DNA from: Candidatus Oxydemutator sp.
GTDB lineage: Bacteria > Pseudomonadota > Gammaproteobacteria > Poriferisulfidales > Oxydemutatoraceae
Direction: 5' to 3'
Length of the DNA: 64,000 nucleotides
Assembly (NCBI GenBank): GCA_965203445.1
Contig: OZ241883.1
Span: 1,600,001-1,664,000 of the forward strand
The notes under the pieces: generated by a model
Database searches by the model: none
The model's input: the letters and a program-made list of their open reading frames with translations, nothing else
Told to the model about the DNA's origin: nothing
Shown here: piece by piece, positions 22,187 to 48,122 of the stretch
How the letters are laid out: every line of letters begins with the position of its first letter
How positions within the stretch are numbered: position 1 is the first letter of the stretch
Made by a program: the position numbers and the translations under genes

Positions 22187-25100
22187 ATGAGTATGTTCAA
22201 AAAAGATATATCTTACATTTTGTTCGTGGCAGTATTGCTCGGGGCCAGTTTGCCCTCGGCATCACTTGCCCAGGCTTTGCGTACTTCTGACAGTCCGCCA
22301 TGCCCGAGCACGGGCACAGATTGCTTGATTTTTACTACATACATGGACAATGAGAGAGTTGTACCCAATTCTGGTAGTCCCAGTGGATATGACTATGCCT
22401 TTGATCTCTCCTACTCGGTTAACAGTAACATAAGGCTTGGAGCTCTGGTTGTGGCTAATAGGAATACTGTATATCAATCAGGTGATAGCCTGCCACTTCT
22501 GATGCATAATATAGAGACGATCATCGGATTTGATAGAGATGTATTTGTAGTCACTGAAAGCGCGATAACTATAGCTTATGCCGAGGGTGCGAGCATCTTT
22601 GATCCAGACTCTGAGGATTCTTCGTTTACTAGGGAGGTTGCTCCTGGAGTATCCATAACAGCCCCCAGCTACCAACATCCCTCCCTGGACGGTCGTCCTG
22701 GTGTTACGGCTCGCATACTCCTCAGTGCTGACCAGCGGCTGTCAGTATCAATACAGGGAGACGCTCGAACCCCTATCGGTGCAACTCCACTATATGACTT
22801 TGGCAATGGCAGCAGAAGGGTACTTTTTAACATTCGCATACCTATTAGGAATGCCGCGAATTTCAACGCTGCGGCGACTAGCGCTGACGCAGATATCTTT
22901 ATGAGTAGAGGGGGTGCTGGGATAGGCGAAAGCAGTATTCTAAACTATGCCAATGCTGTGAGTGATAGGGCTCTAGCACGGTTCGGGGCCACAACAGTAC
23001 GCATACGCCGCCCCAACCCCATCCAGAGTCTGGCGGCGCCGGTGAATTTGGCGGTAAGCTCCCAGAGAGTGGAGGAGGGCCAAGATCTGACGATCACCCT
23101 GAACCGGGGTGCCGCAGTAGCCACTGATACGGATATCACTTTAAGATTGTCGCTTGGAGGGGAGTCCGGCGAGGCGGGACGGGAAGATCTTAACCTCACT
23201 GGTTGGGCGACAAGCGGCACGGTGGCCACAAGAACGGTAACAATGGCCAAGGACGAAAGTAGTGTGTCAATCGATATTCCCGTCATAGACGACATGTTGA
23301 GCGAAGGCGATGAGACCTTTCGCGTTGAGTTTCTCCCGAGCTCCACCGTGGGTCAGGGGGATCCGTCCGCGTTGACCGTGACGATACCGGCCAACGACCC
23401 GATAAGATACTCGATCAGTCCGCCTCCGGGAGATGTGATGGAAGGGAGCGACGCTGAATTTGAGGTCACTTTGGGAGCGGAAACCACCCGGGCATTGATG
23501 CTTGAATATACAGTAGCCGTAGCCGGGGACGGCACTCCCCAGGGCACAACGCCAGACTATACCGATCCAAATAGCGGCAGCATTCTCATTGCTGCCGGGA
23601 GCACCAGGACCACGATCACTATCACGATAAATGGCGACGCGCTGGCGGAAGGTCAGGAGACTTTGACGGTCACGCTGACGGGAGATGCCAACGGCATCGG
23701 CACCGTCGTGCAGGCGAGAGCTACTGCTACTGCGACCATCCCAGAAAACGAGGCCAACGTGCGCGAGTTTTTCGTGGTGGATGGCGACTTCACTGCCCTG
23801 GCCGAAGATGCGGCGGCTGCTCGTAGCTATAATGTCAGTTTCCGGCCGGTCGGCGGCATTTCAGCAAATGCCGATCTGCCCAGCACGACGACCGTCCGCT
23901 GGAGCTTGGTTGGTTCGAGCGCTTCGGGCGCCAACCCGATCGAAGCGGCTGATTTTGCCGAGACTTCCGGCACGCTGACGTTCGCCGCCGGCACCAGCAG
24001 CGTGAAGAACTTCTCGGTTACGGTTACCAATGACAACCTGAACGAAGGCGCAGAAAGCTATCGGGTGAGTCTGCGAGTAGTGAGCGGCGACACCGCCGGC
24101 TCCGCCGGTGTTGATTCTCCGGTCGGCACCGTTGCGGACGACGCTGCCGATACGATAACGGTCGCGTTCACGGCTGGCCCCGTCACCACAATTAACGAAG
24201 GCGAGCACTCCACGCAGACGCTCGTCCGTTCGGGTGGCACGCCCACCGCCGAGAACGTCGTCGTGCCGTTGCTCATCACTCCCGTTGCCATGCAGGATGA
24301 GGTCAGGATAACGAATCCCGTCGGCCTGCGCATCCTGCGTGTGCCGGACGATGTTACCGTTACCGGAGGCGAAACCGGTCTGTACGGCTTTGCGGTGTTC
24401 ACCGCAACCGGCGGCCAATACGCAACGAACGCCACCTTCCAGATTATGGCTTTCAACGACAACCTCCTTGAGGATGCGGAGATGGTGAGTGTGACTATCG
24501 GTGATCCGACGGCCGCTGCGTATAGCAGCGTTCCTGGTGTCGGCAGCGCCGGCACGGTTGCCAGAGCCACGCCTGCTCCGACGTACACCGGAACCATTGC
24601 GGCAAACGACCCGATAACGGTCGCGGTGAATCCGGTGCGGGGGCAGGAACGCGGTGTCGGCGAAGGCAGCAACCTGGGTTACACGATAACGTTTTCCAAC
24701 AACCGGCCGACGGCGGATATAACCGTTGGTATGACGATTGAGGGCATTATCGTTGGTAGCACAACTGGTACGGAAAATGCCGATTTTGACGCGGCGGCGT
24801 CGGGATGGAACACCTCCGCGGCGACGGTTACTACCGACGCCACGATCACCGTGGCCGACGTAGTATTGGGCCGGCCCATCGCACTCCCGACCCTGCGCGT
24901 GGTGACGGGTGATACGGACGACAGAGAGGAGACTTTCCAACTGACCGTGGTTCCGAGCGGGGGTGCTCCAGCGCAAACGGCGGCCATCGCTCGCTTCTCG
25001 CCGCCACAGGTCACCACCACCTCGACGATCTTGCGCATAGACACCGAAGCACCGGGTTTGAACGGCGTGGGTTACGCCACCGACGACCCGACCCGGCGCG

Positions 25101-27385
25101 CGTGGTTGAGATCGGGAGATCCGGAGCTTGCCATCCTGTTGCCATCTGAAGCAGCTGCACCCGCGGGTTCCGGCGCACAGACTGGTGCCATGTTGGGCGG
25201 CTTCAGCGTGATGGTGATGAGCCGCCCCACCGATACGAGAACGGTTAGCGTCCAGGCCATGTATAGCTCGCCCAACGTGATAGTTTTGACACTGCCGCCG
25301 GGTGCTGCGCTTACCGCTGATGACATGGGTGTGTTTGCAAGATACGAATATCCGGGAAGCGGTCTGGGCATATTTGACCGCTCGCTGGAGGCGGGCTTGC
25401 GCCCGGCGGATGACCAGAATCGCAACCAGCAACGCGGCCCGTTGATGATAAGTTTGGCAGCTTTCTCGGAAACCGCCGACACCGACGGCGACGGCATCCC
25501 GGATGCCACCGAGGCCAAGTTGAACGGCGATCCGCTGGACTCGGAGTTGCCGGCCGGCGTGCCGCAAGTTTCAGTGGATGAGGACATGCTCTACTTCGCA
25601 TATTCGGGAATACGTCGACACGGGATTGACACCGCCACGTTGATCAGTCACCTTGGCCTCACGACGACGGGAACGGCGTCGTTCCCGGCAGTGTCGGCAG
25701 AGGCCTATTACCTGGATAGAGGCAACTGCACTGGTGGACAATTCCCTGCAAATTATGACGCGCCGATGGGCGGCTGCGAGCGGGTGAACTTTTGGAACAT
25801 GAAAGCCGGCGAGAATCACAAGATAGGCTGGGTGGTGATGGGCGATGATGTGCCGGAGGGCCATCCCGCGCGAGGCTACTGGTTCACCGCGAACACGCCG
25901 AGCAGGTTGCCGGAGCAGACGGTCTATCGCGTGCCGGAGCTGAACATGCTGTCGCAGCACTTGTTCTTTGCGAGTGGCGCGACCGATAGCGATGCTGTCT
26001 CAATTAAATTTGAGCGCGATGGCCGTGAAACGGATCAATTGACATTTGAGTCGTCCGAGGGGAACACCGAGGAGTTGACTGGGGCACGGTTTTCCCGCGA
26101 AGTTAATAAATCTGATCTCGGTGGTGCTTCGCGCACGTATTCGATTGCGGATTTGGTTGATGCGACACTATATGAGCCGAGCACTGCTGGTCATAGGCCG
26201 GGGGAAAATGATTATTCCTTGGGGCTGGTAACGCAGACGCAAGTTGTCGTGGTACCTGACTCGTACTTGTGGCCAAGGTTCGGGGCGCTGAAGTTGACGA
26301 GGATGGGGAGCACCAGCACCTCCGTGGTCAACTTTGTGGTTCGAGGTGATAGCTACAAGCTGACGGTGGAGATGGAGAACATGGACGATGCGGTGAGGAC
26401 GATACCGCACACGGGTTTCACAAATGTGGAGGGCCACCGCGGGTTTGATCGTGATGATATCAGCACTGATGTGGGTACGTTGACTGTAGATTTCACCGTA
26501 CCCACGGACGCCCCCGAATTATTGTCATTGATGTTGACTGCTTATGCTCCTCACGGTGGCGCGACTAGGAGCGCGGTGTATAGCTGGAGGGTGATTAATA
26601 CTAATGACCGTAATGTGGTGAGGTTGGGCATGCCAGACGATGATGATGACGGTGACGGAATTCCGAATACCCATGATAGATATGAAGATATGGCATTGCC
26701 TGTATTGGTGAAAGATACTGCGGGTGAGGATGGTAGTCACCACATGCGCTTGGCGGTGCCGTTACAGCAGCAGTTGCGCGTCGGCGGACATACGCTCCGC
26801 CGCCTAGAAGAACGGAGCACACAGACGGTGACATACGCACTCCACTCTGCGTCGGCGAACAAAGGTGAAAAAGTGAGGTATAACTTCGAGATCCATGGCG
26901 TGGATTACGACGTGGGTGAGGATGGCAACACCACCGGCGGCATGGCCACTGTGTTTGTTAAACTGCCAGAGTCGTCTTTTAGCCGTGGCTTACAGCTGGC
27001 GAAGTTCGCTGACGAGGATATCAGCGCTCATAGGCACCTTTTTTCTGTCTACAAGGCCGAGGGTCATGGCGAGTATGGTTTTGAGTCTTCGCGTCTTGGC
27101 GAAGACTGTCCCGTTCCCAACGGTAATAATTATAAAGCCACGGAGAGGGGAGAGCACGACTGTCTCATGGTGCGGATAAGGGATGGCGGTCGCCACGATG
27201 AGGATTGCTGGAGCGACGGAAGCTACGATATGGAGTGCAGGCCAAACGGCATCATACGCGACCCGCTGGGCTTTGGCCGAGATGCTCCGGGTGGCGGCAG
27301 TGGCGGCAGCGTCGGCCTGTTGGGTATTGCCCTGCTGATGTTGGCCTTGGCGGCAACCCTGCTGCGCCGTCGTCGCGTGCACTGA
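22187..27385 (+). CDS. Large surface-anchored protein: signal peptide, novel (possibly cohesin-like) N-domain, Calx-beta repeats, SwmB-like domain, TSP3-like DxDGDG motifs, choice-of-anchor-U-like domain, GlyGly-CTERM tail
   Basis: GGAGA RBS precedes the ATG at 22187 (the ORF track extends to a TTG at 22109). Signal peptide MSMFKKDISYILFVAVLLGASLPSASLA; Calx-beta motifs; DTDGDGIPD and DDDGDGIPN; IRDGGRHDED..NGIIRDP; terminal GGGSGGSVG + hydrophobic helix + RRRR. Confidence 0.85.
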   Translation: MSMFKKDISYILFVAVLLGASLPSASLAQALRTSDSPPCPSTGTDCLIFTTYMDNERVVPNSGSPSGYDYAFDLSYSVNSNIRLGALVVANRNTVYQSGDSLPLLMHNIETIIGFDRDVFVVTESAITIAYAEGASIFDPDSEDSSFTREVAPGVSITAPSYQHPSLDGRPGVTARILLSADQRLSVSIQGDARTPIGATPLYDFGNGSRRVLFNIRIPIRNAANFNAAATSADADIFMSRGGAGIGESSILNYANAVSDRALARFGATTVRIRRPNPIQSLAAPVNLAVSSQRVEEGQDLTITLNRGAAVATDTDITLRLSLGGESGEAGREDLNLTGWATSGTVATRTVTMAKDESSVSIDIPVIDDMLSEGDETFRVEFLPSSTVGQGDPSALTVTIPANDPIRYSISPPPGDVMEGSDAEFEVTLGAETTRALMLEYTVAVAGDGTPQGTTPDYTDPNSGSILIAAGSTRTTITITINGDALAEGQETLTVTLTGDANGIGTVVQARATATATIPENEANVREFFVVDGDFTALAEDAAAARSYNVSFRPVGGISANADLPSTTTVRWSLVGSSASGANPIEAADFAETSGTLTFAAGTSSVKNFSVTVTNDNLNEGAESYRVSLRVVSGDTAGSAGVDSPVGTVADDAADTITVAFTAGPVTTINEGEHSTQTLVRSGGTPTAENVVVPLLITPVAMQDEVRITNPVGLRILRVPDDVTVTGGETGLYGFAVFTATGGQYATNATFQIMAFNDNLLEDAEMVSVTIGDPTAAAYSSVPGVGSAGTVARATPAPTYTGTIAANDPITVAVNPVRGQERGVGEGSNLGYTITFSNNRPTADITVGMTIEGIIVGSTTGTENADFDAAASGWNTSAATVTTDATITVADVVLGRPIALPTLRVVTGDTDDREETFQLTVVPSGGAPAQTAAIARFSPPQVTTTSTILRIDTEAPGLNGVGYATDDPTRRAWLRSGDPELAILLPSEAAAPAGSGAQTGAMLGGFSVMVMSRPTDTRTVSVQAMYSSPNVIVLTLPPGAALTADDMGVFARYEYPGSGLGIFDRSLEAGLRPADDQNRNQQRGPLMISLAAFSETADTDGDGIPDATEAKLNGDPLDSELPAGVPQVSVDEDMLYFAYSGIRRHGIDTATLISHLGLTTTGTASFPAVSAEAYYLDRGNCTGGQFPANYDAPMGGCERVNFWNMKAGENHKIGWVVMGDDVPEGHPARGYWFTANTPSRLPEQTVYRVPELNMLSQHLFFASGATDSDAVSIKFERDGRETDQLTFESSEGNTEELTGARFSREVNKSDLGGASRTYSIADLVDATLYEPSTAGHRPGENDYSLGLVTQTQVVVVPDSYLWPRFGALKLTRMGSTSTSVVNFVVRGDSYKLTVEMENMDDAVRTIPHTGFTNVEGHRGFDRDDISTDVGTLTVDFTVPTDAPELLSLMLTAYAPHGGATRSAVYSWRVINTNDRNVVRLGMPDDDDDGDGIPNTHDRYEDMALPVLVKDTAGEDGSHHMRLAVPLQQQLRVGGHTLRRLEERSTQTVTYALHSASANKGEKVRYNFEIHGVDYDVGEDGNTTGGMATVFVKLPESSFSRGLQLAKFADEDISAHRHLFSVYKAEGHGEYGFESSRLGEDCPVPNGNNYKATERGEHDCLMVRIRDGGRHDEDCWSDGSYDMECRPNGIIRDPLGFGRDAPGGGSGGSVGLLGIALLMLALAATLLRRRRVH

Positions 27386-28034: not shown

Positions 28035-29194
28035 TGTTGGCGCCCGGCGCCACGCTGGGAGTGCTCGGCGGCGGCCAGCTCGGGCGCATGTTCGTCGCCG
28101 CCGCGCGCACGATGGGCTATCGCAGCGCGGTGCTCGACCCCGACCGCGACAGCCCCGCGGGCGCCGTCGCCGATCACCACTTGCGCGCCGACTATACCGA
28201 CGAACAAGCCCTCGCGCGCTTCGCGCGTACGTGCGACGCGGTTACCACCGAGTTCGAGAACGTGCCGGCCGCGGCGCTCGAACGCCTGCGCCGCGACGTG
28301 CCGGTGCGTCCCGGCGTGCTGGCGCTGGGTCTGGCCCAGGATCGCATCGCCGAGAAGAACTTTCTGCGCACCGCCGGCATCGCGACCGTGCCGTACGCCG
28401 AGGTGCGCGACGCCGACGACCTGGCCGATGCGCTGCGGCGGCTGACGCCGCCGCTGATCCTGAAGCGCGCGCGCCTGGGCTACGACGGCAAGGGACAGAT
28501 CGAAGTGCGCGACGCGCGCGAGGCGCGGCGCGCGTTCGCGGCCGTGGCCGGCGACGCGGGCGCCGTCGCCTGCGTCGCCGAGCAGCGCGTCGAACTGGCC
28601 GCCGAGATTTCGGTGATTCTGGCGCGCGCGCCCGACGGCCGCTGCACCTTCTTCCCGGTGGCCGAGAACCGCCACCGCGACGGCATACTCCATTCCACCT
28701 CGGTGCCGGCGTCGGTGCCGCGAGCGACGCAGGACGCCGCGCGCGCGCAGGCCGCGCACGCGGCCGCCGCGATGGACTACCAGGGCGTATTGGCGATCGA
28801 GTTTTTCATCACGCGCACCGGCGAGCTGCTGGCCAACGAGTTTGCGCCGCGCCCGCACAACAGCGGCCACTACACGTTGGACGCCTGCGCGGCGTCGCAA
28901 TTCGATCAACAGGTGCGGATGACGTGCGCGCTGGCCGCGGCTGATACGCGCCTGCTGACGCCGGTGGTCATGGTCAACCTGCTGGGCGACTTGTGGGGCG
29001 CGGGCGAGCCGGCATGGGACGTGCTGCTGCGTGAACCGCACGCGCGCCTGCACCTGTACGGCAAACGCCACGCGCGCCGCGGGCGCAAGATGGGACACTT
29101 CTGCCTGCTCGGCGACGACGTCGCGGCGTTGCGCGCGCAAGCCTGCGACATCCACCGGCGTCTCGCCCGCCAGACTTCCCACCAGACACAATGA
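28034..29194 (+). CDS. purK: N5-carboxyaminoimidazole ribonucleotide synthase
   Basis: LGVLGGGQLGRM, TTEFENVP, GYDGKGQ, NEFAPRPHNSGH, HLYGK..RKMGH; follows purE. Confidence 0.97.
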   Translation: MLAPGATLGVLGGGQLGRMFVAAARTMGYRSAVLDPDRDSPAGAVADHHLRADYTDEQALARFARTCDAVTTEFENVPAAALERLRRDVPVRPGVLALGLAQDRIAEKNFLRTAGIATVPYAEVRDADDLADALRRLTPPLILKRARLGYDGKGQIEVRDAREARRAFAAVAGDAGAVACVAEQRVELAAEISVILARAPDGRCTFFPVAENRHRDGILHSTSVPASVPRATQDAARAQAAHAAAAMDYQGVLAIEFFITRTGELLANEFAPRPHNSGHYTLDACAASQFDQQVRMTCALAAADTRLLTPVVMVNLLGDLWGAGEPAWDVLLREPHARLHLYGKRHARRGRKMGHFCLLGDDVAALRAQACDIHRRLARQTSHQTQ

Positions 29195-29707
29195 CGCGCG
29201 AGTTCGACGCTTTTCGCATCCGCTACGACGCCGGCGCGTTCCATGCCGGCATCGAGAACACCAGCGTCGCCGCTCCCGCCGCCGGCGCGCTCCACCGGCG
29301 TCTCGCCCGCCAGACTTCCCGCCAGACGCAATGACGCGCGAGTTCGACGCTTTTCGTATCCGTTGCGCCGCCGGCGCGTTCCATGCCGGCATCGAGAACA
29401 CCAGCGTCGCCGCTCCCGCCGCCGGCGCGCTCCACCGGCGTCTCACCCGCCAGACTTCCTGCCAGACGCAATGACACGCGAGTTCGACGCATTCCGCATC
29501 CGTTGCGCCGCCGGCGCGTTCCATGCCGGCATCGAGAACACCAGCGTCGCCGCTCCCGCCGCCGGCGCGCTCTACCGGCGTCTCGCCCGCCAGACTTTCC
29601 ACCAGACGCAATGATGCGCGAGTTCGACGCATTCCGCATCCGTTGCGCCGCCGGCGCGTTCCATGCCGGCATCGAGAACACCAGCGTCGCCGCTCCCGCC
29701 GCCGGCG
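29151..29707 (+). repeat. Four tandem ~140-bp copies spanning the purK 3' end and the reductase 5' end; encode three 47-aa ATGA-coupled mini-ORFs (29191-29334, 29331-29474, 29471-29614)
   Basis: Units start at 29151, 29291, 29431 and 29571 (TC[C/T]ACCGGCGTCTC..CAATGA..GAGTTCGACGC..), with few SNPs. Confidence 0.93.
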
Positions 29708-30633: not shown

Positions 30634-30705
30634 CTCCTTCTCCCTCTGGCAGAGAGCTTGATCGGCAAGCCCTGACGTAACCCTCTCCCCCTAGGAGAGG
30701 GTGGG
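30634..30705. repeat. REP/BoxC-like palindromic element (CCCTCTCCC..GGAGAGGG); related half-copy at ~27463-27481
   Basis: ACCCTCTCCCCCTAGGAGAGGGT hairpin plus CTCCCTCTGGCAGAGAG; CTCTCCCTCTGGGAGGG upstream of purE. Confidence 0.4.
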
Positions 30706-30725
30706 CGGATTCCATGAGGGCCGCA

Positions 30726-30740
30726 GGACATTTGTGCTTT
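30726..30740 (+). repeat. 15-bp direct repeat GGACATTTGTGCTTT, copy 1
   Basis: Identical copies at 35954-35968 and 36359-36373. Confidence 0.85.
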
Positions 30741-30818
30741 CGTTTGATAATCCAGTCCGTTATATACAACTGCACCGCAAGCGTCCGGGTCGTCGATTCC
30801 ATCAATGATCGAACCGCC

Positions 30819-30867
30819 GTACCGTTCGTCGGAAATTTCTTGCAGGGCGCGCGCGCTGCTATAAAAT
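30819..30867 (+). promoter_or_regulatory. Promoter of the nuclease array: AlgR/LytTR-type box ACCGTTCGTC + sigma70 -35/-10, probably leaderless
   Basis: ACCGTTCGTC at 30821-30830; TTGCAG at 30840-30845; 16-bp spacer; TAAAAT at 30862-30867; ATG at 30875, 7 nt later. Confidence 0.6.
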
Positions 30868-30874
30868 GGCGGCC

Positions 30875-31702
30875 ATGAACAACGTGCATGACATACGGCA
30901 CTACCGGATTGCCGAGAAGCGCCCGGATCCATATTCGGATGCGGCGTCGCGCGCGCGCTGGGCGCGGATCGAGGCGGCCCAGGAAGAGATACAAAGGGCG
31001 ATAGCGGCGACCGACCGGCAACTGGAAGAGACCGCCAAGGAGGTAAAGGAAGCCGCCAGAGTGTCCCGGGAGTCTATCCAGGAACTCTCCAAGGAGGTAA
31101 AGGAGACCGCCAGAGTGTCCCGGGAGTCCATCCAGGAACTCTCCAAGGAGGTAAAGGAAACCGCCAGAGTGTCCCGGGAGTCCATCCAGAAACTTTCCAG
31201 GCAAGTGGAAGAGACTTCCAAGGAAGTAAAGGAAACCACCAGAGCGGTAAAGGATCTCAACAAGAAAGTCGGGGGCGCGGGGCAAGTTCGGGGGCGCATC
31301 ACCGAGGAGTTTTTCTATAAGGCGTTGCGCGAGGAGCGGCGTATCGGCGCGTTGAAGTTCGACGATATATACCTGAACTTCGAGGCAAAGCGCGATGGTC
31401 GGAGAACCGAATATGACCTGCTGTTGACCAACGGCGAATTGGTGGCGGTGGTCGAGGTCAAGCACAATCTGCGCCTCGACAACGTGGAGGATATGCGCAA
31501 GATACGTGCGCCGCACGCCCGTTATTATCTGCGCCGTTTCAGCGACAAGAAGATGTTGTTTGTGATGGCGTATATGACTGCGGACACCCAGGCGGTGGCC
31601 CTGGCGCACGAATGCGGCTACGCGACGCTGTCGCCGGATGGTCAGAAGGCGCGCGCGGACATAAGTTGCGTGCGCTACGTCGAGTGTGAGGAACAATCAT
31701 GA
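30875..31702 (+). CDS. Coiled-coil + PD-(D/E)XK nuclease (DUF3782-like), array copy 1 (275 aa; three 18-aa stalk repeats)
   Basis: Heptad stalk, then G.ITEEFFYKAL..KFDDI..EYDLLLTNG..VVEVK. The start at MNNVHD matches MSNVHD of the other copies (ORF track starts 30866). Confidence 0.85.
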   Translation: MNNVHDIRHYRIAEKRPDPYSDAASRARWARIEAAQEEIQRAIAATDRQLEETAKEVKEAARVSRESIQELSKEVKETARVSRESIQELSKEVKETARVSRESIQKLSRQVEETSKEVKETTRAVKDLNKKVGGAGQVRGRITEEFFYKALREERRIGALKFDDIYLNFEAKRDGRRTEYDLLLTNGELVAVVEVKHNLRLDNVEDMRKIRAPHARYYLRRFSDKKMLFVMAYMTADTQAVALAHECGYATLSPDGQKARADISCVRYVECEEQS

Positions 31703-32460
31703 GCAACGTACACGACATGCAAAGCTACCGGATTGCCGAGAAGCGCCCGGATCCATATTCGGATGCGGCGTCGCGCGCGCGCTGGGCGCGGATCGAGGCG
31801 GCCCAGGAAGAGATACAAAGGGCGATAACGGCGACCGACCGGCAACTGGAAGAGACCTCCAAGGAGGTGAAGGATGCTGCCAGAGTAGCAAAAGAGGCCG
31901 CCAGGGAGGTAAAGGAAACCGCCAGAGTGTCCCGGGAGTCCATCCAGAAACTTTCCAGGCAAGTGGAAGAGACCTCCAAGGAAGTAAAGGAAACCACCAG
32001 AGCGGTAAAGGATCTCAACAAGAAAGTCGGGGGCGCGGGGCAAGTTCGGGGGCGCATCACCGAGGAGTTTTTCTATAAGGCATTGCGCGAGGAGCGGCGT
32101 ATCGGCGTGTTGAAGTTCGACGATATATACCTGAACTTCGAGGCAAAGCGCGATGGTCGGAGAACCGAATATGACCTGCTGTTGACCAACGGCGAATTGG
32201 TGGCGGTGGTCGAGGTCAAGCACAATCTGCGCCTCGACAACGTGGAGGATATGCGCAAGATACGTGCGCCGCACGCCCGTTATTATCTGCGCCGTTTCAG
32301 CGACAAGAAGATGTTGTTTGTGATGGCGTATATGACCGCGGACACCCAGGCGGTGGCCCTGGCGCACGAATGCGGCTACGCGACGCTGTCGCCGGACGGC
32401 CAGAAGGCGCGCGCGGACATAAGTTGCGTGCGCTACGTCGAGTGTGAGGAACAATCATGA
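31699..32460 (+). CDS. Coiled-coil + PD-(D/E)XK nuclease, array copy 2 (253 aa)
   Basis: Near-identical paralog; ATGA overlap with copy 1. Confidence 0.85.
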   Translation: MSNVHDMQSYRIAEKRPDPYSDAASRARWARIEAAQEEIQRAITATDRQLEETSKEVKDAARVAKEAAREVKETARVSRESIQKLSRQVEETSKEVKETTRAVKDLNKKVGGAGQVRGRITEEFFYKALREERRIGVLKFDDIYLNFEAKRDGRRTEYDLLLTNGELVAVVEVKHNLRLDNVEDMRKIRAPHARYYLRRFSDKKMLFVMAYMTADTQAVALAHECGYATLSPDGQKARADISCVRYVECEEQS

Positions 32461-33239
32461 GCAACGTACACGACATGCAAAGCTACCGGATTGCCGAGAA
32501 GCGCCCGGATCCATATTCGGATGCGGCGTCGCGCGCGCGCTGGGCGCGGATCGAGGCGGCCCAGGAAGAGATACAAAGGGCGATAGCGGCGACCGACCGG
32601 CAACTGGAAGAGACCTCCAAGGAGGTGAAGGATGCTGCCAGAGTAGCAAAAGAGGCCGCCAGGGAGGTAAAGGAAACCGCCAGAGTGTCCCGGGAGTCCA
32701 TCCAGAAACTTTCCAAGGCGATAGAAGCAGCTACCGGGCAAGTGGAAGAGACCTCCAAGGAAGTAAAGGAAACCACTAGAGCGGTAAAGGATCTCAACAA
32801 GAAAGTCGGGGGCGCGGGGCAAGTTCGGGGGCGCATCACCGAGGAGTTTTTCTATAAGGCATTGCGCGAGGAGCGGCGTATCGGCGTGTTGAAGTTCGAC
32901 GATATATACCTGAACTTCGAGGCAAAGCGCGATGGTCGGAGAACCGAATATGACCTGCTGTTGACCAACGGCGAATTGGTGGCGGTGGTCGAGGTCAAGC
33001 ACAATCTGCGCCTCGACAACGTGGAGGATATGCGCAAGATACGTGCGCCGCACGCCCGTTATTATCTGCGCCGTTTCAGCGACAAGAAGATGTTGTTTGT
33101 GATGGCGTATATGACCGCGGACACCCAGGCGGTGGCCCTGGCGCACGAATGCGGCTACGCGACGCTGTCGCCGGACGGCCAGAAGGCGCGCGCGGACATA
33201 AGTTGTGTGCGCTACGTCGAGTGTGAGGAACAATCATGA
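32457..33239 (+). CDS. Coiled-coil + PD-(D/E)XK nuclease, array copy 3 (260 aa)
   Basis: Near-identical paralog; ATGA overlap. Confidence 0.85.
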   Translation: MSNVHDMQSYRIAEKRPDPYSDAASRARWARIEAAQEEIQRAIAATDRQLEETSKEVKDAARVAKEAAREVKETARVSRESIQKLSKAIEAATGQVEETSKEVKETTRAVKDLNKKVGGAGQVRGRITEEFFYKALREERRIGVLKFDDIYLNFEAKRDGRRTEYDLLLTNGELVAVVEVKHNLRLDNVEDMRKIRAPHARYYLRRFSDKKMLFVMAYMTADTQAVALAHECGYATLSPDGQKARADISCVRYVECEEQS

Positions 33240-33976
33240 GCAACGTACACGACATGCAAAGCTACCGGATTGCCGAGAAGCGCCCGGATCCATATTCGGA
33301 TGCGGCGTCGCGCGCGCGCTGGGCGCGGATCGAGGCGGCCCAGGAAGAGATACAAAGGGCGATAGCGGCGACCGACCGGCAACTGGAAGAGGCCGCCAGG
33401 GAGGTAAAGGAAACCGCCAGAGTGTCCCGGGAGTCCATCCAGAAACTTTCCAAGGCGATAGAAGCAGCTACCAGGCAAGTGGAAGAGACCTCCAAGGAAG
33501 TAAAGGAAACCACCAGAGCGGTAAAGGATCTCAACAAGAAAGTCGGGGGCGCGGGGCAAGTTCGGGGGCGCATCACCGAGGAGTTTTTCTATAAGGCATT
33601 GCGCGAGGAGCGGCGTATCGGCGTGTTGAAGTTCGACGATATATACCTGAACTTCGAGGCAAAGCGCGATGGTCGGAGAACCGAATATGACCTGCTGTTG
33701 ACCAACGGCGAGTTGGTGGCGGTGGTCGAGGTCAAGCACAATCTGCGCCTCGACAACGTGGAGGATATGCGCAAGATACGTGCGCCGCACGCCCGTTATT
33801 ATCTGCGCCGTTTCAGCGACAAGAAGATGTTGTTTGTGATGGCGTATATGACCGCGGACACCCAGGCGGTGGCCCTGGCGCACGAATGCGGCTACGCGAC
33901 GCTGTCGCCGGACGGCCAGAAGGCGCGCGCGGACATAAGTTGTGTGCGCTACGTCGAGTGTGAGGAACAATCATGA
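33236..33976 (+). CDS. Coiled-coil + PD-(D/E)XK nuclease, array copy 4 (246 aa)
   Basis: Near-identical paralog; ATGA overlap. Confidence 0.85.
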   Translation: MSNVHDMQSYRIAEKRPDPYSDAASRARWARIEAAQEEIQRAIAATDRQLEEAAREVKETARVSRESIQKLSKAIEAATRQVEETSKEVKETTRAVKDLNKKVGGAGQVRGRITEEFFYKALREERRIGVLKFDDIYLNFEAKRDGRRTEYDLLLTNGELVAVVEVKHNLRLDNVEDMRKIRAPHARYYLRRFSDKKMLFVMAYMTADTQAVALAHECGYATLSPDGQKARADISCVRYVECEEQS

Positions 33977-34692
33977 GCAACGTACACGACATGCAAAGCT
34001 ACCGGATTGCCGAGAAGCGCCCGGATCCATATTCGGATGCGGCGTCGCGCGCGCGCTGGGCGCGGATCGAGGCGGCCCAGGAAGAGATACAAAGGGCGAT
34101 AGCGGCGACCGACCGGCAACTGGAAGAGGCCGCCAGGGAGGTAAAGGAAACCGCCAGAGTGTCCCGGGAGTCCATCCAGAAACTTTCCAGGCAAGTGGAA
34201 GAGACCTCCAAGGAAGTAAAGGCAACCACCAGAGCGGTAAAGGATCTCAACAAGAAAGTCGGGGGCGCGGGGCAAGTTCGGGGGCGCATCACCGAGGAGT
34301 TTTTCTATAAGGCATTGCGCGAGGAGCGGCGTATCGGCGTGTTGAAGTTCGACGATATATACCTGAACTTCGAGGCAAAGCGCGATGGTCGGAGAACCGA
34401 ATATGACCTGCTGTTGACCAACGGCGAGTTGGTGGCGGTGGTCGAGGTCAAGCACAATCTGCGCCTCGACAACGTGGAGGATATGCGCAAGATACGTGCG
34501 CCGCACGCCCGTTATTATCTGCGCCGTTTCAGCGACAAGAAGATGTTGTTTGTGATGGCGTATATGACTGCGGACACCCAGGCGGTGGCCCTGGCGCACG
34601 AATGCGGCTACGCGACGCTGTCGCCGGATGGTCAGAAGGCGCGCGCGGACATAAGTTGCGTACGCTACGTCGAGTGTGAGGAACAATCATGA
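33973..34692 (+). CDS. Coiled-coil + PD-(D/E)XK nuclease, array copy 5 (239 aa, shortest stalk)
   Basis: Near-identical paralog; ATGA overlap. Confidence 0.85.
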   Translation: MSNVHDMQSYRIAEKRPDPYSDAASRARWARIEAAQEEIQRAIAATDRQLEEAAREVKETARVSRESIQKLSRQVEETSKEVKATTRAVKDLNKKVGGAGQVRGRITEEFFYKALREERRIGVLKFDDIYLNFEAKRDGRRTEYDLLLTNGELVAVVEVKHNLRLDNVEDMRKIRAPHARYYLRRFSDKKMLFVMAYMTADTQAVALAHECGYATLSPDGQKARADISCVRYVECEEQS

Positions 34693-35513
34693 GCAACGTA
34701 CACGACATGCAAAGCTACCGGATTGCCGAGAAGCGCCCGGATCCATATTCGGATGCGGCGTCGCGCGCGCGCTGGGCGCGGATCGAGGCGGCCCAGGAAG
34801 AGATACAAAGGGCGATAGCGGCGACCGACCGGCAACTGGAAGAGACCTCCAAGGAGGTGAAGGATGCTGCCAGAGTAGCAAAAGAGGCCGCCAGGGAGGT
34901 AAAGGAAACCGCCAGAGTGTCCCGGGAGTCCATCCAGAAACTTTCCAAGGCGATAGAAGCAGCTACCAGGCAAGTGGAAGAGACCTCCAAGGAAGTAAAG
35001 AAAACCACCAGGCAAGTGGAAGAGACCTCCAAGGAAGTAAAGGCAACCACCAGAGCGATAAAGGATCTCAACAAGAAAGTCGGGGGCGCGGGGCAAGTTC
35101 GGGGGCGCATCACCGAGGAGTTTTTCTATAAGGCATTGCGCGAGGAGCGGCGTATCGGCGTGTTGAAGTTCGACGATATATACCTGAACTTCGAGGCAAA
35201 GCGCGATGGTCGGAGAACCGAATATGACTTGCTGTTGACCAACGGCGAATTGGTGGCGGTGGTCGAGGTCAAGCACAATCTGCGCCTCGACAACGTGGAG
35301 GATATGCGCAAGATACGTGCGCCGCACGCCCGTTATTATCTGCGCCGTTTCAGCGACAAGAAGATGTTGTTTGTGATGGCGTATATGACCGCGGACACCC
35401 AGGCGGTGGCCCTGGCGCACGAATGCGGCTACGCGACGCTGTCGCCGGATGGTCAGAAGGCGCGCGCGGACATAAGTTGCGTACGCTACGTCGAGTGTGA
35501 GGAACAATCATGA
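34689..35513 (+). CDS. Coiled-coil + PD-(D/E)XK nuclease, array copy 6 (274 aa)
   Basis: Near-identical paralog; ATGA overlap. Confidence 0.85.
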   Translation: MSNVHDMQSYRIAEKRPDPYSDAASRARWARIEAAQEEIQRAIAATDRQLEETSKEVKDAARVAKEAAREVKETARVSRESIQKLSKAIEAATRQVEETSKEVKKTTRQVEETSKEVKATTRAIKDLNKKVGGAGQVRGRITEEFFYKALREERRIGVLKFDDIYLNFEAKRDGRRTEYDLLLTNGELVAVVEVKHNLRLDNVEDMRKIRAPHARYYLRRFSDKKMLFVMAYMTADTQAVALAHECGYATLSPDGQKARADISCVRYVECEEQS

Positions 35514-35537: not shown

Positions 35538-35864
35538 ATGGAAAACCGAGAACTCAACGACCGCCTTGCCGCCATCGAGGGCAGAGTAACTGCCATCGAG
35601 GGCAGAGTGGCGGCCATCGAGGGCAACATAAAGGTCCTTGAAAATGACGTGGCGCATATCCAGCGAGACGTTACCGAGATCAAGACCGGCATAAAGGTAT
35701 TGACAGAGAACGTTGCCAAGATGATGGGGATGATGACGAATTTAGCCGGCTTGCCCGAGAAGGTGGAAAAGCAGGGCCGGGAAATCGGCCGCCTGCAAGG
35801 GGGAGCTGCCGTTATCGTCAGCCTTGCAGTCGCCGTAGGTATCTTCTACAAACTCTTCTTCTGA
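35538..35864 (+). CDS. Small heptad-repeat coiled-coil protein with C-terminal TM anchor
   Basis: RLAAIEG/RVTAIEG/RVAAIEG heptads; C-terminal GAAVIVSLAVAVGIFYKLFF; TATAAT at 35523-35528 just upstream of the ATG. Confidence 0.75.
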   Translation: MENRELNDRLAAIEGRVTAIEGRVAAIEGNIKVLENDVAHIQRDVTEIKTGIKVLTENVAKMMGMMTNLAGLPEKVEKQGREIGRLQGGAAVIVSLAVAVGIFYKLFF

Positions 35865-35953: not shown

Positions 35954-35968
35954 GGACATTTGTGCTTT
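35954..35968 (+). repeat. 15-bp direct repeat GGACATTTGTGCTTT, copy 2
   Basis: Exact match to 30726-30740; followed by GGTTTGACAC. Confidence 0.85.
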
Positions 35969-36001
35969 GGTTTGACACGACGTTGAGAGCCGGTGCCGGA
36001 T

Positions 36002-36231
36002 ATGCTGGGGGATAGACCTTCATCAGCTGCTCAGGCGCATTCCCGACGCCACCGAAGATTGAGGCGAAGGCGGTGGCGGACTCGATTGCCCAAGCCGACG
36101 AAATAGTCACTAAGGCCGATTTGGAGGCTGCGCTTGCCCGGCTCGAGGCTAAGCTGACCAGATTGATATTCAGCGCCGCCGCCGTTGTTATCGCCGCGGT
36201 CAGCGCAATAACGAAGTTCATCATCACCTGA
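36002..36231 (+). pseudogene. Frameshifted DUF1640/CCDC90-like coiled-coil membrane-anchored protein (~75 aa)
   Basis: Removing one G in the G5 run (~36007-36011) and one T (~36060) gives MLGIDLHQLLRRIPDATEDEAKAVADSIAQADEIVTKADLEAALARLEAKLTRLIFSAAAVVIAAVSAITKFIIT*, with a VTKADL neck motif and C-terminal TM. Confidence 0.6.
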
Positions 36232-36358: not shown

Positions 36359-36373
36359 GGACATTTGTGCTTT
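36359..36373 (+). repeat. 15-bp direct repeat GGACATTTGTGCTTT, copy 3
   Basis: Exact match; lies directly upstream of the pyrB promoter. Confidence 0.85.
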
Positions 36374-36397
36374 GGCTTTACAGTTTGACACCCGAAC

Positions 36398-45270: not shown

Positions 45271-46125
45271 GTGACCACCGACGCCCCGTTCGCGTCGCGG
45301 CGCCCGCGTCTGATGGGTATTTTGAATCTGACGCCGGACAGTTTCTCCGACGGCGGCCTTTACAACGACGCCGCCAAGGCGCTGGCGCGCGCGGGCGAGA
45401 TGATCGGGCAGGGCGCCGAGATTATCGACGTCGGCGGCGAGTCCACGCGCCCCGGCGCCGCGCGCGTCGTCGCGTCCGAGCAGAAGTCGCGCGTGCTCGA
45501 GACCGTGGCCGCGCTGGCGGCGCGCCATCCGCGCTGCCTCGTCAGCATAGACACGACGCTGGCCGAGGTCGCCGAAGCCGCGCTCGACGCCGGCGCCGGC
45601 ATGATCAACGACGTTTCGGCCGGGCGCTGCGATGCGCGCATGATCGAGCTGGCGGCGGCGCGGCGCGTGCCGATCTGCCTGATGCACATGCAAAACGATC
45701 CGGCCACGATGCAGGACGATCCGCGCTACGACGACGTCGTCGCCGAGGTGCGCGCGTTTCTCGACGAGCGCGCCGCGCACGCCGTCGCGCGCGGCGTCGC
45801 GCGCGACAACGTGGTGCTCGATCCCGGCATCGGCTTCGGCAAGACGACCGCGCACAACCTCGCGCTGATCAACCACTTGGGCGCGTTCACCGCGCTCGGC
45901 TACCCGGTGTTGCTCGGCACCAGCCGCAAGCGCTTCATCGGCGAGGCCTGCGCCGCCGGCGCCACCGGCGCGCCCGTCGAAGGCCCCGCCGGGCGCGTCG
46001 CCGCCGGCGTCGCCACGACCGTGCTCGGCGTGCAGGCCGGCGTTCGCATCTTCCGCGTGCACGACGTCTGGCAGCACCGCCAGGCGCTGCACCTGATGGG
46101 CGCGCTCGGCGCGAGCGCGCGATGA
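45271..46125 (+). CDS. folP: Dihydropteroate synthase
   Basis: MGILNLTPDSFSDGG, DVGGESTRPGA, DPGIGFGK, SRKRF, RVHDV. Confidence 0.96.
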   Translation: MTTDAPFASRRPRLMGILNLTPDSFSDGGLYNDAAKALARAGEMIGQGAEIIDVGGESTRPGAARVVASEQKSRVLETVAALAARHPRCLVSIDTTLAEVAEAALDAGAGMINDVSAGRCDARMIELAAARRVPICLMHMQNDPATMQDDPRYDDVVAEVRAFLDERAAHAVARGVARDNVVLDPGIGFGKTTAHNLALINHLGAFTALGYPVLLGTSRKRFIGEACAAGATGAPVEGPAGRVAAGVATTVLGVQAGVRIFRVHDVWQHRQALHLMGALGASAR

Positions 46126-46994
46126 GAGTCCTGTCCGTCGCCGATCGCTACGACGACCATCCCGAGGAACTGCTGATCACGGTGTCGCGCGTCAAGGACG
46201 CCTCGTGCCTGTATCGCTACTACAAGAACTACGTCGAGAGGCCCAGGCGCGAGCAGGCGTTTGTCAGTATCGAGAACGGCGTCGGCAGTTTTTTTCACGC
46301 CTACGTCGAGGACTGGTTCAAAGCCGTCGCCGCGCGCGGCGGCGTCATCGCCGATGGCGACGCGCTCGACGTGGACGACCTCGTGCGCCGCTTTCGCCTG
46401 GCTTTCCTATGGCGGGGCGAGTTGCGCGCGCCGTATCGGATCGTGCGCCACGGCGCTTGTTTCGACGACTTCGTCGCGCGTCTGCAAGCCGTCGCCCGCC
46501 ATTTCAACGAGTTTTTGCCGCGCCACCTCGCCGGCTGCGAAGTGGTCGCGGTCGAGGGCGCGCTGCAAATCCGCACCGACTCGCTCTACGTGCGCGGCAA
46601 ATACGACCTGATCTCGCGCGCCGCCGACGGGCGCCTGATGTTATGGGATTGGAAGAGCGGACGCCTGCCGAAGGCCGAATACCACGATGATTATCTGCAT
46701 CAGAAAGTGCAGCTCGGCATTTACGCGACCTGGATGCGCCATAAGTTCGGCACTTCCGAGGTCGAGGGCGCCGCGGTGTTTCTGCGCGACGCCCCGCGCT
46801 GTCTGTCGGAGGCGTTCACGCCCGAGGTCGAGCGCATGGTGCTCGACTACCTGCATACCCGCAGGGAGCGCTTGAATCGCGTCACAACGTGGCCGCCGTC
46901 GCCGAGCGCGTTGTGCGACTGGTGCGGCTGGAAGCCGGCGTGCCCGGCGTTTGCGAACGAACGAGACGGCCCTCCGAATCCCCCGAATCCGTAA
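46122..46994 (+). CDS. Stand-alone RecB/AddB/Cas4-like PD-(D/E)XK nuclease with Fe-S cysteines
   Basis: S....C...Y at the N-terminus, G..FH, E..L..RGKYDLI..DWKSG, QL.IY, C-terminal CDWCGWKPAC. Confidence 0.8.
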   Translation: MRVLSVADRYDDHPEELLITVSRVKDASCLYRYYKNYVERPRREQAFVSIENGVGSFFHAYVEDWFKAVAARGGVIADGDALDVDDLVRRFRLAFLWRGELRAPYRIVRHGACFDDFVARLQAVARHFNEFLPRHLAGCEVVAVEGALQIRTDSLYVRGKYDLISRAADGRLMLWDWKSGRLPKAEYHDDYLHQKVQLGIYATWMRHKFGTSEVEGAAVFLRDAPRCLSEAFTPEVERMVLDYLHTRRERLNRVTTWPPSPSALCDWCGWKPACPAFANERDGPPNPPNP

Positions 46995-47045: not shown

Positions 47046-48122
47046 TTACGCGTCGCAGGGAATGCAGCGCAGGTGCGTCGTATCGGTGCGCACCTGCTGG
47101 CCGTTCGGCGTCAGTACCGCGTAGCCGTAGTTGTGGGCCAGGGCGACGGCGCCCTCGTCCACGGTCATGCCCGCCACCACCGGCACCAGGGTCTTGCCGT
47201 GCAGTTCCCGCAGCAGGTATCTGGCGTTCGGCATCAGCACCGCGTGCACCTTCTCGACGTCGGTTTCGCGCAGTCTCTGCTTGATCTCGACGATTGCGAC
47301 GAACTTTCCGTTCTCCATCACCAAGTCGTACTCGGCGCGTTTGTCGCGGCGGCGGACTCTGACGTTGGAGCGGATGTCCTCGAACGGTATACCGCCGATG
47401 CCTCGGGCCTTGAGCAACGCCTGATAAAAGAAATCCTCGGCGATCTGCCCCTGGGTTTCACCGATACCGCCGACCATCTTTTTGAGCGCCTCCCACTCTT
47501 TCTGGCGCACTGCTTCCTGTTTGTGCTGTTGCTCCCAGTATTCGGCCGCTGCTTTTTTATATCTGGTCACTGCCTTCTGGTGCTTGGCTGTTTCTCTCTT
47601 GCACTTGGCTGTTTCTCTCTTGCACTTGGCTGTTTCCTCCTTGCACTTTTTGATTTTCGCGTCCAGCTTGGCCATCTTTTTCCGATGGGCTTTCATTTCT
47701 TCCTCGAAGCGCGCGTCGCTTCTGGCGGTCTCGTCTTTGATCGCTTTTATTTCTTTCTCGAAGCGCGCGGTGTTCCTGGCGGTCTCGGCTTCGATTGCCT
47801 TCCTGCTGGCCTCGCTGGCTTTAATGCGCGCGTTGCTCTTGGCGATTTCGGCTTCGATCGCTTTCATTTCTTCCTTGAAGCGCGCGGTGTTCCTGGCGCT
47901 CTTGTCTTTGATCGCTTTCATTTCTTCCTTGAAGCGCGCGGTGTTCCTGGCACTCTTGTCTTTGATCGCTTTCATCTCTTCCTTGAAGCGTGCGTCGCTT
48001 TTGGCGGTTTTGGCCTTGATCGCTTTCATTTCGGCCTCGAAGCGCAAGTCGCGCGCGGCGATTCGCGCGTGGAGTTTCGCGGCGCGATCCAGGTTTCGTT
48101 CTACTCTGTCGAGGATGTCCAT
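47046..48122 (-). CDS. Solo coiled-coil + PD-(D/E)XK nuclease, homolog of the array genes, with a long basic 18-aa/7-aa repeat stalk
   Basis: (ARFKEEMKAIKDKSARNT)n and (KRETAKC)n repeats, then GQIAEDFFYQAL..EYDLVMENG..IVEIK..AHNYGYAVLTPNGQ. Confidence 0.85.
   Translation of the reverse strand: MDILDRVERNLDRAAKLHARIAARDLRFEAEMKAIKAKTAKSDARFKEEMKAIKDKSARNTARFKEEMKAIKDKSARNTARFKEEMKAIEAEIAKSNARIKASEASRKAIEAETARNTARFEKEIKAIKDETARSDARFEEEMKAHRKKMAKLDAKIKKCKEETAKCKRETAKCKRETAKHQKAVTRYKKAAAEYWEQQHKQEAVRQKEWEALKKMVGGIGETQGQIAEDFFYQALLKARGIGGIPFEDIRSNVRVRRRDKRAEYDLVMENGKFVAIVEIKQRLRETDVEKVHAVLMPNARYLLRELHGKTLVPVVAGMTVDEGAVALAHNYGYAVLTPNGQQVRTDTTHLRCIPCDA

Follow-up and report, generated by a model that had tools for sequence, protein, structure and literature searches.

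A tandem array of six predicted nuclease genes with near-identical heads and stalks of unequal length in Candidatus Oxydemutator

Six tandem genes on the forward strand, each predicted to encode a nuclease head at the end of a long helical stalk, occupy positions 30875-35513 of the window analysed here, that is, of the whole stretch of 64,000 nucleotides (nt) taken from the Candidatus Oxydemutator sp. assembly GCA_965203445.1 (contig OZ241883.1, positions 1,600,001 to 1,664,000). Neighbouring genes overlap by an ATGA stop/start, start-to-start distances are 758, 779, 737, 716 and 821 nt, and a repeat finder recovered six copies with 98-100% identity across a 300-nt stretch of the head region. 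The products differ in length throughout (Table 1), copy 1 comprising 275 amino acids (aa), or 278 if translated from an upstream ATG at 30866. One 35-nt sequence is common to all five junctions, with a GAGGA box 7 nt upstream of each ATG, and the five identical ATGA junctions are a single junction that was amplified and not independent events. Copy 1 starts without a Shine-Dalgarno sequence; a TATAAA box upstream of it, not called by a promoter scan, may be the -10 box of a leaderless transcript. The G+C content is about 58% in the array and about 70% in its flanks, and G+C at third codon positions (GC3) is 0.72-0.75 in the array compared with 0.83-0.93 in the flanking genes, which we take from their translations to be purE, purK and pyr-type genes. 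The identity of a flanking oxidoreductase was confirmed. Long antisense open reading frames (ORFs) of the array have a lower GC3 of 0.58-0.62 and are taken as probable by-products of GC-rich sequence.

Table 1 The six-gene array, nearby features, paralogs in the same genome and tandem sets in other sampled genomes (G numbers).
Feature	Position	Strand	Product and remarks
TATAAA box	30860..30865	+	9 nt 5' of ATG 30875; read from sequence
Six-gene array	window 30875-35513	+	family members 1-6
Copy 1	30875..31702 (or from 30866)	+	275/278 aa; 3 x 18-aa stalk repeats; head A where others have V
Copy 2	31699..32460	+	253 aa; module A
Copy 3	32457..33239	+	260 aa; modules A+B
Copy 4	33236..33976	+	246 aa; module B
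Copy 5	33973..34692	+	239 aa; no module; modelled helix 23-117, then PD-(D/E)XK head
Copy 6	34689..35513	+	274 aa; modules A+B+C; C is a 42-nt tandem duplicate
108-aa gene	35538..35864	+	25 nt after copy 6; AIEGRV heptad-repeat coiled coil, C-terminal hydrophobic helix
52-aa ORF	window 36073-36231	+	VTKADL motif, C-terminal hydrophobic helix
In-window paralog (1.647 Mb)	47046..48122	-	358 aa; stalk repeat ARFKEEMKAIKDKSARNT; head 46% identical to copy 5
Three-gene array	1.798 Mb		232, 219, 268 aa
Adjacent pair	1.677 Mb		295 and 239 aa
Single paralogs	67 kb, 1.647 Mb (in window), 1.719 Mb		
G421 first set			202 / 237 / 216 / 251 aa
G421 second set			209 / 188 / 195 aa; 6, 3 and 4 KTDAQLA heptads
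G169 first set			191 / 183 aa
G169 second set			222 / 204 aa
G055			223 / 216 aa
G065			224 / 260 aa; head pS 0.50, pN 0.02
G365			213 / 234 aa
G381			208 / 180 aa; genes 1 kb apart; head pS 0.37, pN 0.024
G425			196 / 189 aa
G510 first set			228 / 193 aa
G510 second set			189 / 203 aa
G558			241 / 205 aa
G442			211 / 243 aa
G465			204 / 222 aa
G471			209 / 216 aa
G474 (L076)	G474:C13:45201-48500		207 / 207 aa; only equal-length pair seen; identical heads, pS 0

The C-terminal heads (143-149 aa) are identical across the six copies except for one A/V change in copy 1. Among the last 149 codons nine are variable, eight by synonymous changes only and one by this replacement; given 101 synonymous sites and 346 non-synonymous ones, at most one replacement in nine has a binomial probability of 5e-5. 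Judged by these counts the array heads are under purifying selection, which would make the copies working genes. The pairwise proportion of synonymous differences (pS) among the six heads is 0.010-0.059, so the array is recent, though no momentary amplification. Among copies 2-6 the ratio of replacement to synonymous changes is 5:1 in the tip and stalk and 0:7 in the head (Fisher p 0.005), in line with the view that variation lies mostly in the stalk. One of the five tip and stalk replacements sits at an indel edge, and leaving it out gives 4:1 with p about 0.01 (hand calculation).

An alignment of the DNA confined the length differences to the stalk, where they always amount to whole repeat units of 7, 14 or 18 aa. 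Module A comprises 14 aa (42 nt), module B 7 aa (21 nt) and module C, found in copy 6, 14 aa, and the stalk of copy 1 is built from a 54-nt unit present 3.1 times. Modules A and B occur in all four combinations, A in copy 2, both in copy 3, B in copy 4 and neither in copy 5, and the order of copies 3, 4 and 5 is, on this pattern, the expected product of a single unequal crossover in which an AB copy paired with an empty one. In a four-gamete test, 21 of 36 pairs of informative site patterns were incompatible; therefore the copies keep swapping segments. Copy 1 resembles the third gene of a second array of this genome, at 1.798 Mb, with regard to both stalk (three 54-nt units) and head (0.074 synonymous substitutions per synonymous site, dS; 0.009 non-synonymous, dN), and along 113 nt the 5' leader of copy 1 is 83% identical to that of the second array.

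These alignments, together with the ORF map, bear out much of what an initial annotation, made from the letters of the window and a list of its ORFs, had described: six ATGA-coupled paralogs with an invariant head (one A/V change, E..D..EVK intact), the three modules and the 18-aa repeats of copy 1, no two copies of one length, and synonymous single-nucleotide polymorphisms (SNPs) in mosaic. Its proposal that unequal crossover generates the variants also agrees with the module combinations and the four-gamete test, with gene conversion as an additional process. That all indels are in frame was correctly observed, but it does not serve as evidence of selection. Every indel unit is a multiple of three nt and of the helical repeat (7, 14, or 18 = 7 + 11 residues), so in-frame, in-register indels are automatic and follow from the mechanism.

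An AlphaFold2 (AF2) model of the whole copy 5 protein, with a predicted local distance difference test score (pLDDT) of 81, shows the stalk as a single helix that runs into an alpha/beta head. The head modelled alone reached a pLDDT of 94.3 and a predicted template modelling score (pTM) of 0.88, with helices (H) and strands (E) in the order H2-27, E38-47, E50-59, E63-73, H75-92 and E100-110. All listed Foldseek matches in the PDB were PD-(D/E)XK nucleases, led by the endonuclease domain of the R2 retrotransposon (R2 RLE; E 5.8e-4, template modelling score relative to the query, TMq, 0.52) and including Can2, Card1, NucS/EndoMS, AF1548, Bax1, McrC and XisH. Ten aligned heads of this genome share invariant E18, D55 and E68, with K70 in nine (the exception being a paralog termed P2), and the six array copies are identical at all four positions. 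This puts the E in helix 1, the D on strand 2 and ExK on strand 3, as the catalytic signature of the superfamily requires. On the model, the head is of the PD-(D/E)XK fold with the E..D..ExK signature intact and is a predicted nuclease. The array stalks are strongly amphipathic, with a hydrophobicity period of 3.55-3.6 residues (z 7.4-16 versus shuffles). A two-copy complex prediction for copy 5, run without controls, gave scores of 0.02 and 0.05 against a mark of 0.42 and says nothing on self-association.

At the level of named families the array proteins fall below every Pfam cut-off tested. DUF3782 (PF12644) scores 13.7-15.0 bits in copies 1, 2 and 5 against a cut-off of 24.4 and is not among the best 25 families of copy 6; PDDEXK_10 (PF07788, formerly DUF1626) scores 14.9-15.4 bits against 21.2; NERD (PF08378) scores 19.4-19.7 against 22.1, with a match that covers the first part of the head only; and Hjc (PF01870, cut-off 21.1 bits) is not among the best 25 of the 28-47 families matched per copy at E<=1. 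NCBIfam and PHROGs returned coiled-coil noise alone (tape-measure, SMC, Rad50), and the sole match of a PDB sequence search was UPF0102 (3fov), at E 0.6. Profile comparison linked the head to more distant homologs: hhalign aligned the head profile with the Hjc-positive protein P0017 at a probability of 97.2 (E 4.5e-11, 130 columns). Among these homologs, P0015, P0016 and P0018 pass DUF3782 (26.1-29.6 bits), P0016 and P0017 pass Hjc, and P0016 and P0017 carry DUF8196 in precomputed annotation. In the ESM Atlas, the nearest clusters are annotated with DUF8196, Hjc, PDDEXK_10 and DUF3782 for some of their members, with DUF8196 (PF26618) for 20-28%. Models, Foldseek and profiles thus agree with the initial annotation on a coiled-coil-type stalk and a PD-(D/E)XK head related to the uncharacterised DUF3782/PDDEXK_10 group; its label DUF3782-like holds as a statement of homology and does not hold as a Pfam assignment. 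The available text of the sources describes DUF1626 as a predicted PD-(D/E)XK domain, mostly following an N-terminal coiled coil and uncharacterised (PMC1913061), DUF3782 as coiled-coil segments of a prokaryotic endonuclease family (PMC4786415), and a DUF1626 nuclease in archaeal operons with MNT and HEPN genes (PMC3710099). Literature searches under DUF3782, DUF1626, DUF8196, COG5493 and the PF numbers yielded nothing functional, with classification terms only.

The genome, a single contig of 2,378,814 bases with 63.6% G+C, holds 14 family members (Table 1), and within each of its arrays all lengths differ (6/6, 3/3 and 2/2). The stalks of the paralogs consist of unrelated repeats, among them WRAESDQ heptads, the 18-mer ARFKEEMKAIKDKSARNT and an ER/K-rich stretch, and that of the 67-kb paralog has 74% charged residues and lacks an amphipathic period. 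Queried with the copy 5 head, none of three same-genus genomes gave a match, and 40 relatives gave one weak match (E 3e-4). No mobile-element flank is common to all paralog loci; short repetitive extragenic palindromic (REP)-like elements recur at some. The in-window paralog and a gene for a PDDEXK_1 (RecB/Cas4-type) nuclease (window 46122-46994, +, 81.6 bits) are arranged tail to tail. A TnpB-type gene (OrfB_IS605, Cas12f1-like TNB domain; genome 1,720,212-1,721,432), whose 5' region has counterparts of 67-85% identity at about 13 other loci, adjoins the 1.719-Mb paralog.

Beyond this genome, the head profile retrieved 1854 cluster representatives (50% identity) at E<=1e-3 and 678 at E<=1e-10; E<=1e-30 was reached by 12, several of which are this genome's own proteins. 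Of the 150 best representatives, 148 have the head downstream of 6-212 N-terminal residues (exceptions P0024 and P0108), and all 15 representatives inspected have other tandem repeats in the stalk. One of these 15, P0034, looks like a pair of tandem genes that differ in repeat number and were read as a single gene. A 400-genome sample of the class contains 18 other genomes with matches (E<=1e-5), seven with tandem sets and six with a single match. In a sample of the phylum, 42 other genomes match (E<=1e-8), nine of them holding at least nine matches, and tandem pairs occur in seven more genomes among the matches listed. In all, at least 14 genomes besides this one have tandem sets whose stalks differ in length. 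Taxonomically the family is patchy (Limisphaerales, Saccharibacteria, Comamonadaceae, Nitrospirales, Chitinispirillales, Sulfurovum and others). In metagenomes of the Joint Genome Institute (JGI) the copy 5 query found no close relative and the head profile five distant loci; among viral contigs, none of 122 pattern matches was confirmed, two peptide patterns only having been used.

Seventeen of these sets were retrieved and compared through codon alignments, with the G492 pair left out of the length count since the start of its second gene is ambiguous, and with starts shifted by eye to the homologous Met in four pairs (both of G510, and those of G474 and G471). Lengths are unequal in 18 of 19 usable adjacent pairs; the exception, the G474 pair, is apparently a fresh duplication. 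Across adjacent pairs, head pS is 0-0.50 and the corresponding proportion of non-synonymous differences (pN) 0-0.074. Two pairs have a pS of 0, one equal in length and one differing by one heptad (7 aa). Since a pair with identical heads already differs by a heptad and another is still equal, unequal lengths need no selection, and by this comparison changes in stalk length keep pace with, or outrun, the first silent substitutions in the heads. The initial annotation had suggested looking in other genomes for arrays with non-identical stalk lengths, and such arrays were found, purifying selection acting on both of their heads. Recurrent unequal-stalk sets are new here: none turned up in the literature searched, and the available text of the DUF3782/PDDEXK_10 family papers mentions neither tandem arrays nor stalk-length variation among paralogs.

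The best explanation overall, to which we assign a probability of about 0.65, is a length ladder made by repeat slippage and recombination in a young array of a stand-alone nuclease family whose heads are under purifying selection. The locus would be a young tandem array of six intact genes, homogenised through gene conversion, in which stalk repeats of 21, 42 and 54 nt slip and recombine to give a ladder driven by the DNA itself. Unequal crossover between neighbours would yield new genes and reshuffled stalk modules, and the reading frame would be kept because each gain or loss is a whole repeat. Each protein would carry a short conserved N-terminal tip, a long amphipathic alpha-helical repeat stalk and a Hjc/AHJR-like PD-(D/E)XK head, and would presumably act as a metal-dependent DNA endonuclease on a rigid helical spacer, probably self-associating; that it acts against foreign DNA, or processes branched DNA or other DNA structures, is a guess. 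The array would be the largest case seen here of a family-wide habit of keeping tandem paralogs with like heads and differing stalks, the diversity in length being probably tolerated or modestly useful, not designed.

Several points weigh against this explanation. The copy number rests on a single-contig assembly, and contigs from sequencing runs break inside the array repeats. The divergent paralogs of the genome evolve fast, with dN/dS of 0.27-0.9, and P2 (genome 1,678,096-1,678,815, the second gene of the adjacent pair) lacks the GG motif, has EIEIK in place of EVK and gives a dN/dS of 1.28 against its neighbour; either decay or a shift in function may be under way. Old pairs (pS 0.2-0.5) retain both heads intact with modest length gaps (7-36 aa), which points to selection for retaining several versions: both genes stay intact over long periods, and therefore several versions are at least tolerated and possibly useful. 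Equal-length neighbours might, moreover, be rarer than slippage alone would predict.

A rival view is that the set of lengths is itself selected, length setting reach, cut spacing or partner choice and slippery heptads serving as a tuner in the manner of a contingency locus. The recurrence of unequal-stalk sets in independent lineages with differing tips and repeats speaks for it, as do the unequal lengths in every array of this genome, the purifying selection on both heads of old pairs (G065, G381), steps of whole heptads or 18-mers that keep helical phase, the concentration of replacements of copies 2-6 in the stalk, and the charged, non-amphipathic stalk of the 67-kb paralog, which suggests that a rigid spacer matters. 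The repeat units alone, however, make in-frame, phase-keeping indels automatic, and one fresh pair is equal while a pair with identical heads is unequal, so that drift gives unequal lengths fast; in addition, one third of the other positive genomes in the class sample (6/18) hold a single match, and there is no known partner, target or anchor. We therefore consider a selected length set possible but unlikely. A little less likely again is its broader form, in which multiplexing of stalk lengths is a selected strategy of the whole family and heptad steps (about 1 nm, or about 3 bp of DNA) let an anchored or paired enzyme space its cuts. The designed ruler or self-sorting set of the initial annotation finds nothing that shows it, the stalk mutating fast enough to give the ladder without selection.

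Two further explanations can be set against slippage and recombination in a working array. The amplification might be selfish or decaying, a by-product of a recombination-prone gene that spreads in the genome without benefit to the cell and is heading for loss. This would fit 14 copies in a 2.38-Mb genome alongside the near-absence of matches in its relatives, the lower GC3 of the array, the patchy taxonomic distribution, a broken copy in a Limisphaerales metagenome-assembled genome (MAG), the degenerate P2 and the one paralog beside a TnpB-type insertion sequence (IS). It sits badly with six intact array genes whose heads show eight synonymous changes to one replacement, with tandem pairs elsewhere that last to a pS of 0.5 at a pN of 0.02, with the lack of a shared mobile-element flank around the paralogs and with the lack of a viral-contig match for the patterns used, and we regard it as improbable. 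Least probable of all is an assembly artefact in which an assembler expanded one or two real copies. Sequencing runs X1 and X2, which may stem from the source sample, contain 0.69 and 0.57 of the sampled words (no RNA run with the sequence was listed), several bins are uncovered, and the contigs of X1 and X2 break inside the array with none spanning it; yet each of the six copies has its own stalk structure and its own combination of SNPs, the genome is a single 2.38-Mb contig with a second array of three genes and a tandem pair elsewhere, and similar arrays occur in other single-contig genomes (G421, G169, G055). Exact-match unitigs of X1 have a mean word depth of 34-90 in the array and 13-20 in the flanks, which is what multi-copy sequence would give, although depth is no copy number. 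In the sponge metagenome run X5, pieces of 87-120 nt match the array with 0-11 mismatches each (from 90% likeness), and related genes are therefore present in that metagenome. Some joints, one running 31013>33444 with 15 other letters (side 22) and those of X5 that 'go back 92/64', might reflect further stalk variants or paralogs but are too short to interpret.

In other genomes the gene is solitary, surrounded by unrelated and often housekeeping genes. No recurrent partner was found among 55 neighbour ORFs of 11 loci, where each family occurs at most twice, and the neighbours seen twice come from closely related loci only: a RecD-like helicase (two Patescibacteria loci), ClpP and a class II tRNA synthetase. 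Genes that, from their translations, we presume to be MNT- or HEPN-like lie near three of the loci. The defence systems of PADLOC-DB 2.0 gave coiled-coil matches (LmuB, JetC, ZorA) and weak matches to Csx1 / CARF-PDDEXK (E 5.6e-5 to 1.2e-3), so neither these matches nor the neighbour genes give any indication of the defence role proposed in the initial annotation.

The gene directly downstream of the array encodes a 108-aa coiled-coil protein that scores 23.9 bits against XhlA, below the cut-off of 34.7. Longer CCDC90-like (DUF1640) genes pass the Pfam cut-off at 1,670,616-1,671,278 and 1,713,016-1,713,600, with seven matches scored in the genome. In the available text of one source, DUF1640 and DUF3782 are linked via a common coiled-coil motif (PMC4786415). 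CCDC90-like (PF07798) genes occur in five of the 18 nuclease-positive genomes of the class sample, a higher share than among the others; we treat this co-occurrence as a lead only, given that related genomes are not independent samples and that the two kinds of gene are both accessory. One possibility is that the stalks dock on tail-anchored coiled-coil membrane proteins of this CCDC90/DUF1640-like kind, which are expanded in the genome and present just downstream of the array.

Several repeats lie around the array. The motif GGACATTTGTGCTTTGG(T/C)TTGACA has 29 matches genome-wide (up to 3 mismatches) at fewer loci, often as doubled or inverted pairs like element ends. Copies of GGACATTTGTGCTTTGG at 30726-30750, 35954-35978 and 36359-36383, all in the same orientation, bracket the array and the 52-aa ORF, and relatives of this ORF at genome positions 112056, 145119, 745786, 831619 and 1129693 form a small multi-copy family that travels with the motif. 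Another copy of GGACATTTGTGCTTTGG lies about 3 kb from the 1719-kb paralog, and none was found near the other paralog loci. A REP-like element (60-90 nt, with a CCCTCTCCC...GGAGAGGG core) lies upstream of the array (window 30652-30710) and flanks the 1.719-Mb paralog on either side; besides the copy upstream of the array, it occurs at over 30 loci in the genome. Further upstream, a 140-bp unit is repeated 4.0 times in tandem (window 29151-29707, 95% matches). The repeat overlaps both the purK-like gene at its end and the oxidoreductase ORF at its start, so that the peptide MPASRTPASPLPPPARST... is encoded three times in one frame. A 1127-aa ORF (window 24002-27385, +) lies in a stretch of lower G+C (53-59%) and has no Pfam match at E<=1e-3.

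The nuclease family is large, with 1854 representatives at 50% identity in many phyla, and has been known only as a bioinformatic class, for whose characterisation the array gives an entry point. Its cross-lineage property is testable: heads are conserved, and stalks change by whole repeats faster than heads gain silent substitutions. If length matters for function, this would be a rare intracellular enzyme with its geometry diversified by repeat instability, and should stalk-length multiplexing be real, the six-gene ladder would be the fullest set yet seen. If length is irrelevant, the family is still a clean natural system in which slippage and unequal crossover can be set against point mutation.

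Among known systems, proteins of the DUF3782 plus PDDEXK_10/Hjc/DUF8196 group come with the same plan as the array proteins, a helix rich in repeats at the N-terminus and, at the C-terminus, a restriction-endonuclease-like head with E..D..ExK, and they differ in Pfam terms, the array proteins lying under all cut-offs as given above. Hjc/AHJR-like proteins, NucS/EndoMS and Can2/Card1 have the PD-(D/E)XK core and the order of catalytic residues in common with the array head (TMq 0.43-0.54), but at 10-19% identity and a best E of 5.8e-4, and without a long N-terminal repeat stalk; on these structural models, the substrate of the array head is not inferable from such matches. CoCoNuT systems likewise combine coiled coils and nucleases in a conflict context, but, in the available text of their description, they are McrBC-type multi-gene systems in which 'tandem' refers to nuclease domains and not to a gene array (PMC11090510), whereas the array is flanked by the presumed purE/purK and pyr genes and the oxidoreductase. 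RmuC resembles the array proteins in that, broadly, a long coiled coil precedes a nuclease head; the sole match, a weak one in Pfam (E 0.019), falls in the coiled-coil part, with no evidence of homology in the head. Finally, in the stalks of surface proteins and in contingency loci, in-frame tandem repeats that slip and recombine alter the length of coiled coils; these proteins are secreted or surface-exposed, under immune or phage pressure, and usually encoded by one gene that varies over time. The array, in contrast, is an intracellular enzyme kept as several length versions side by side.

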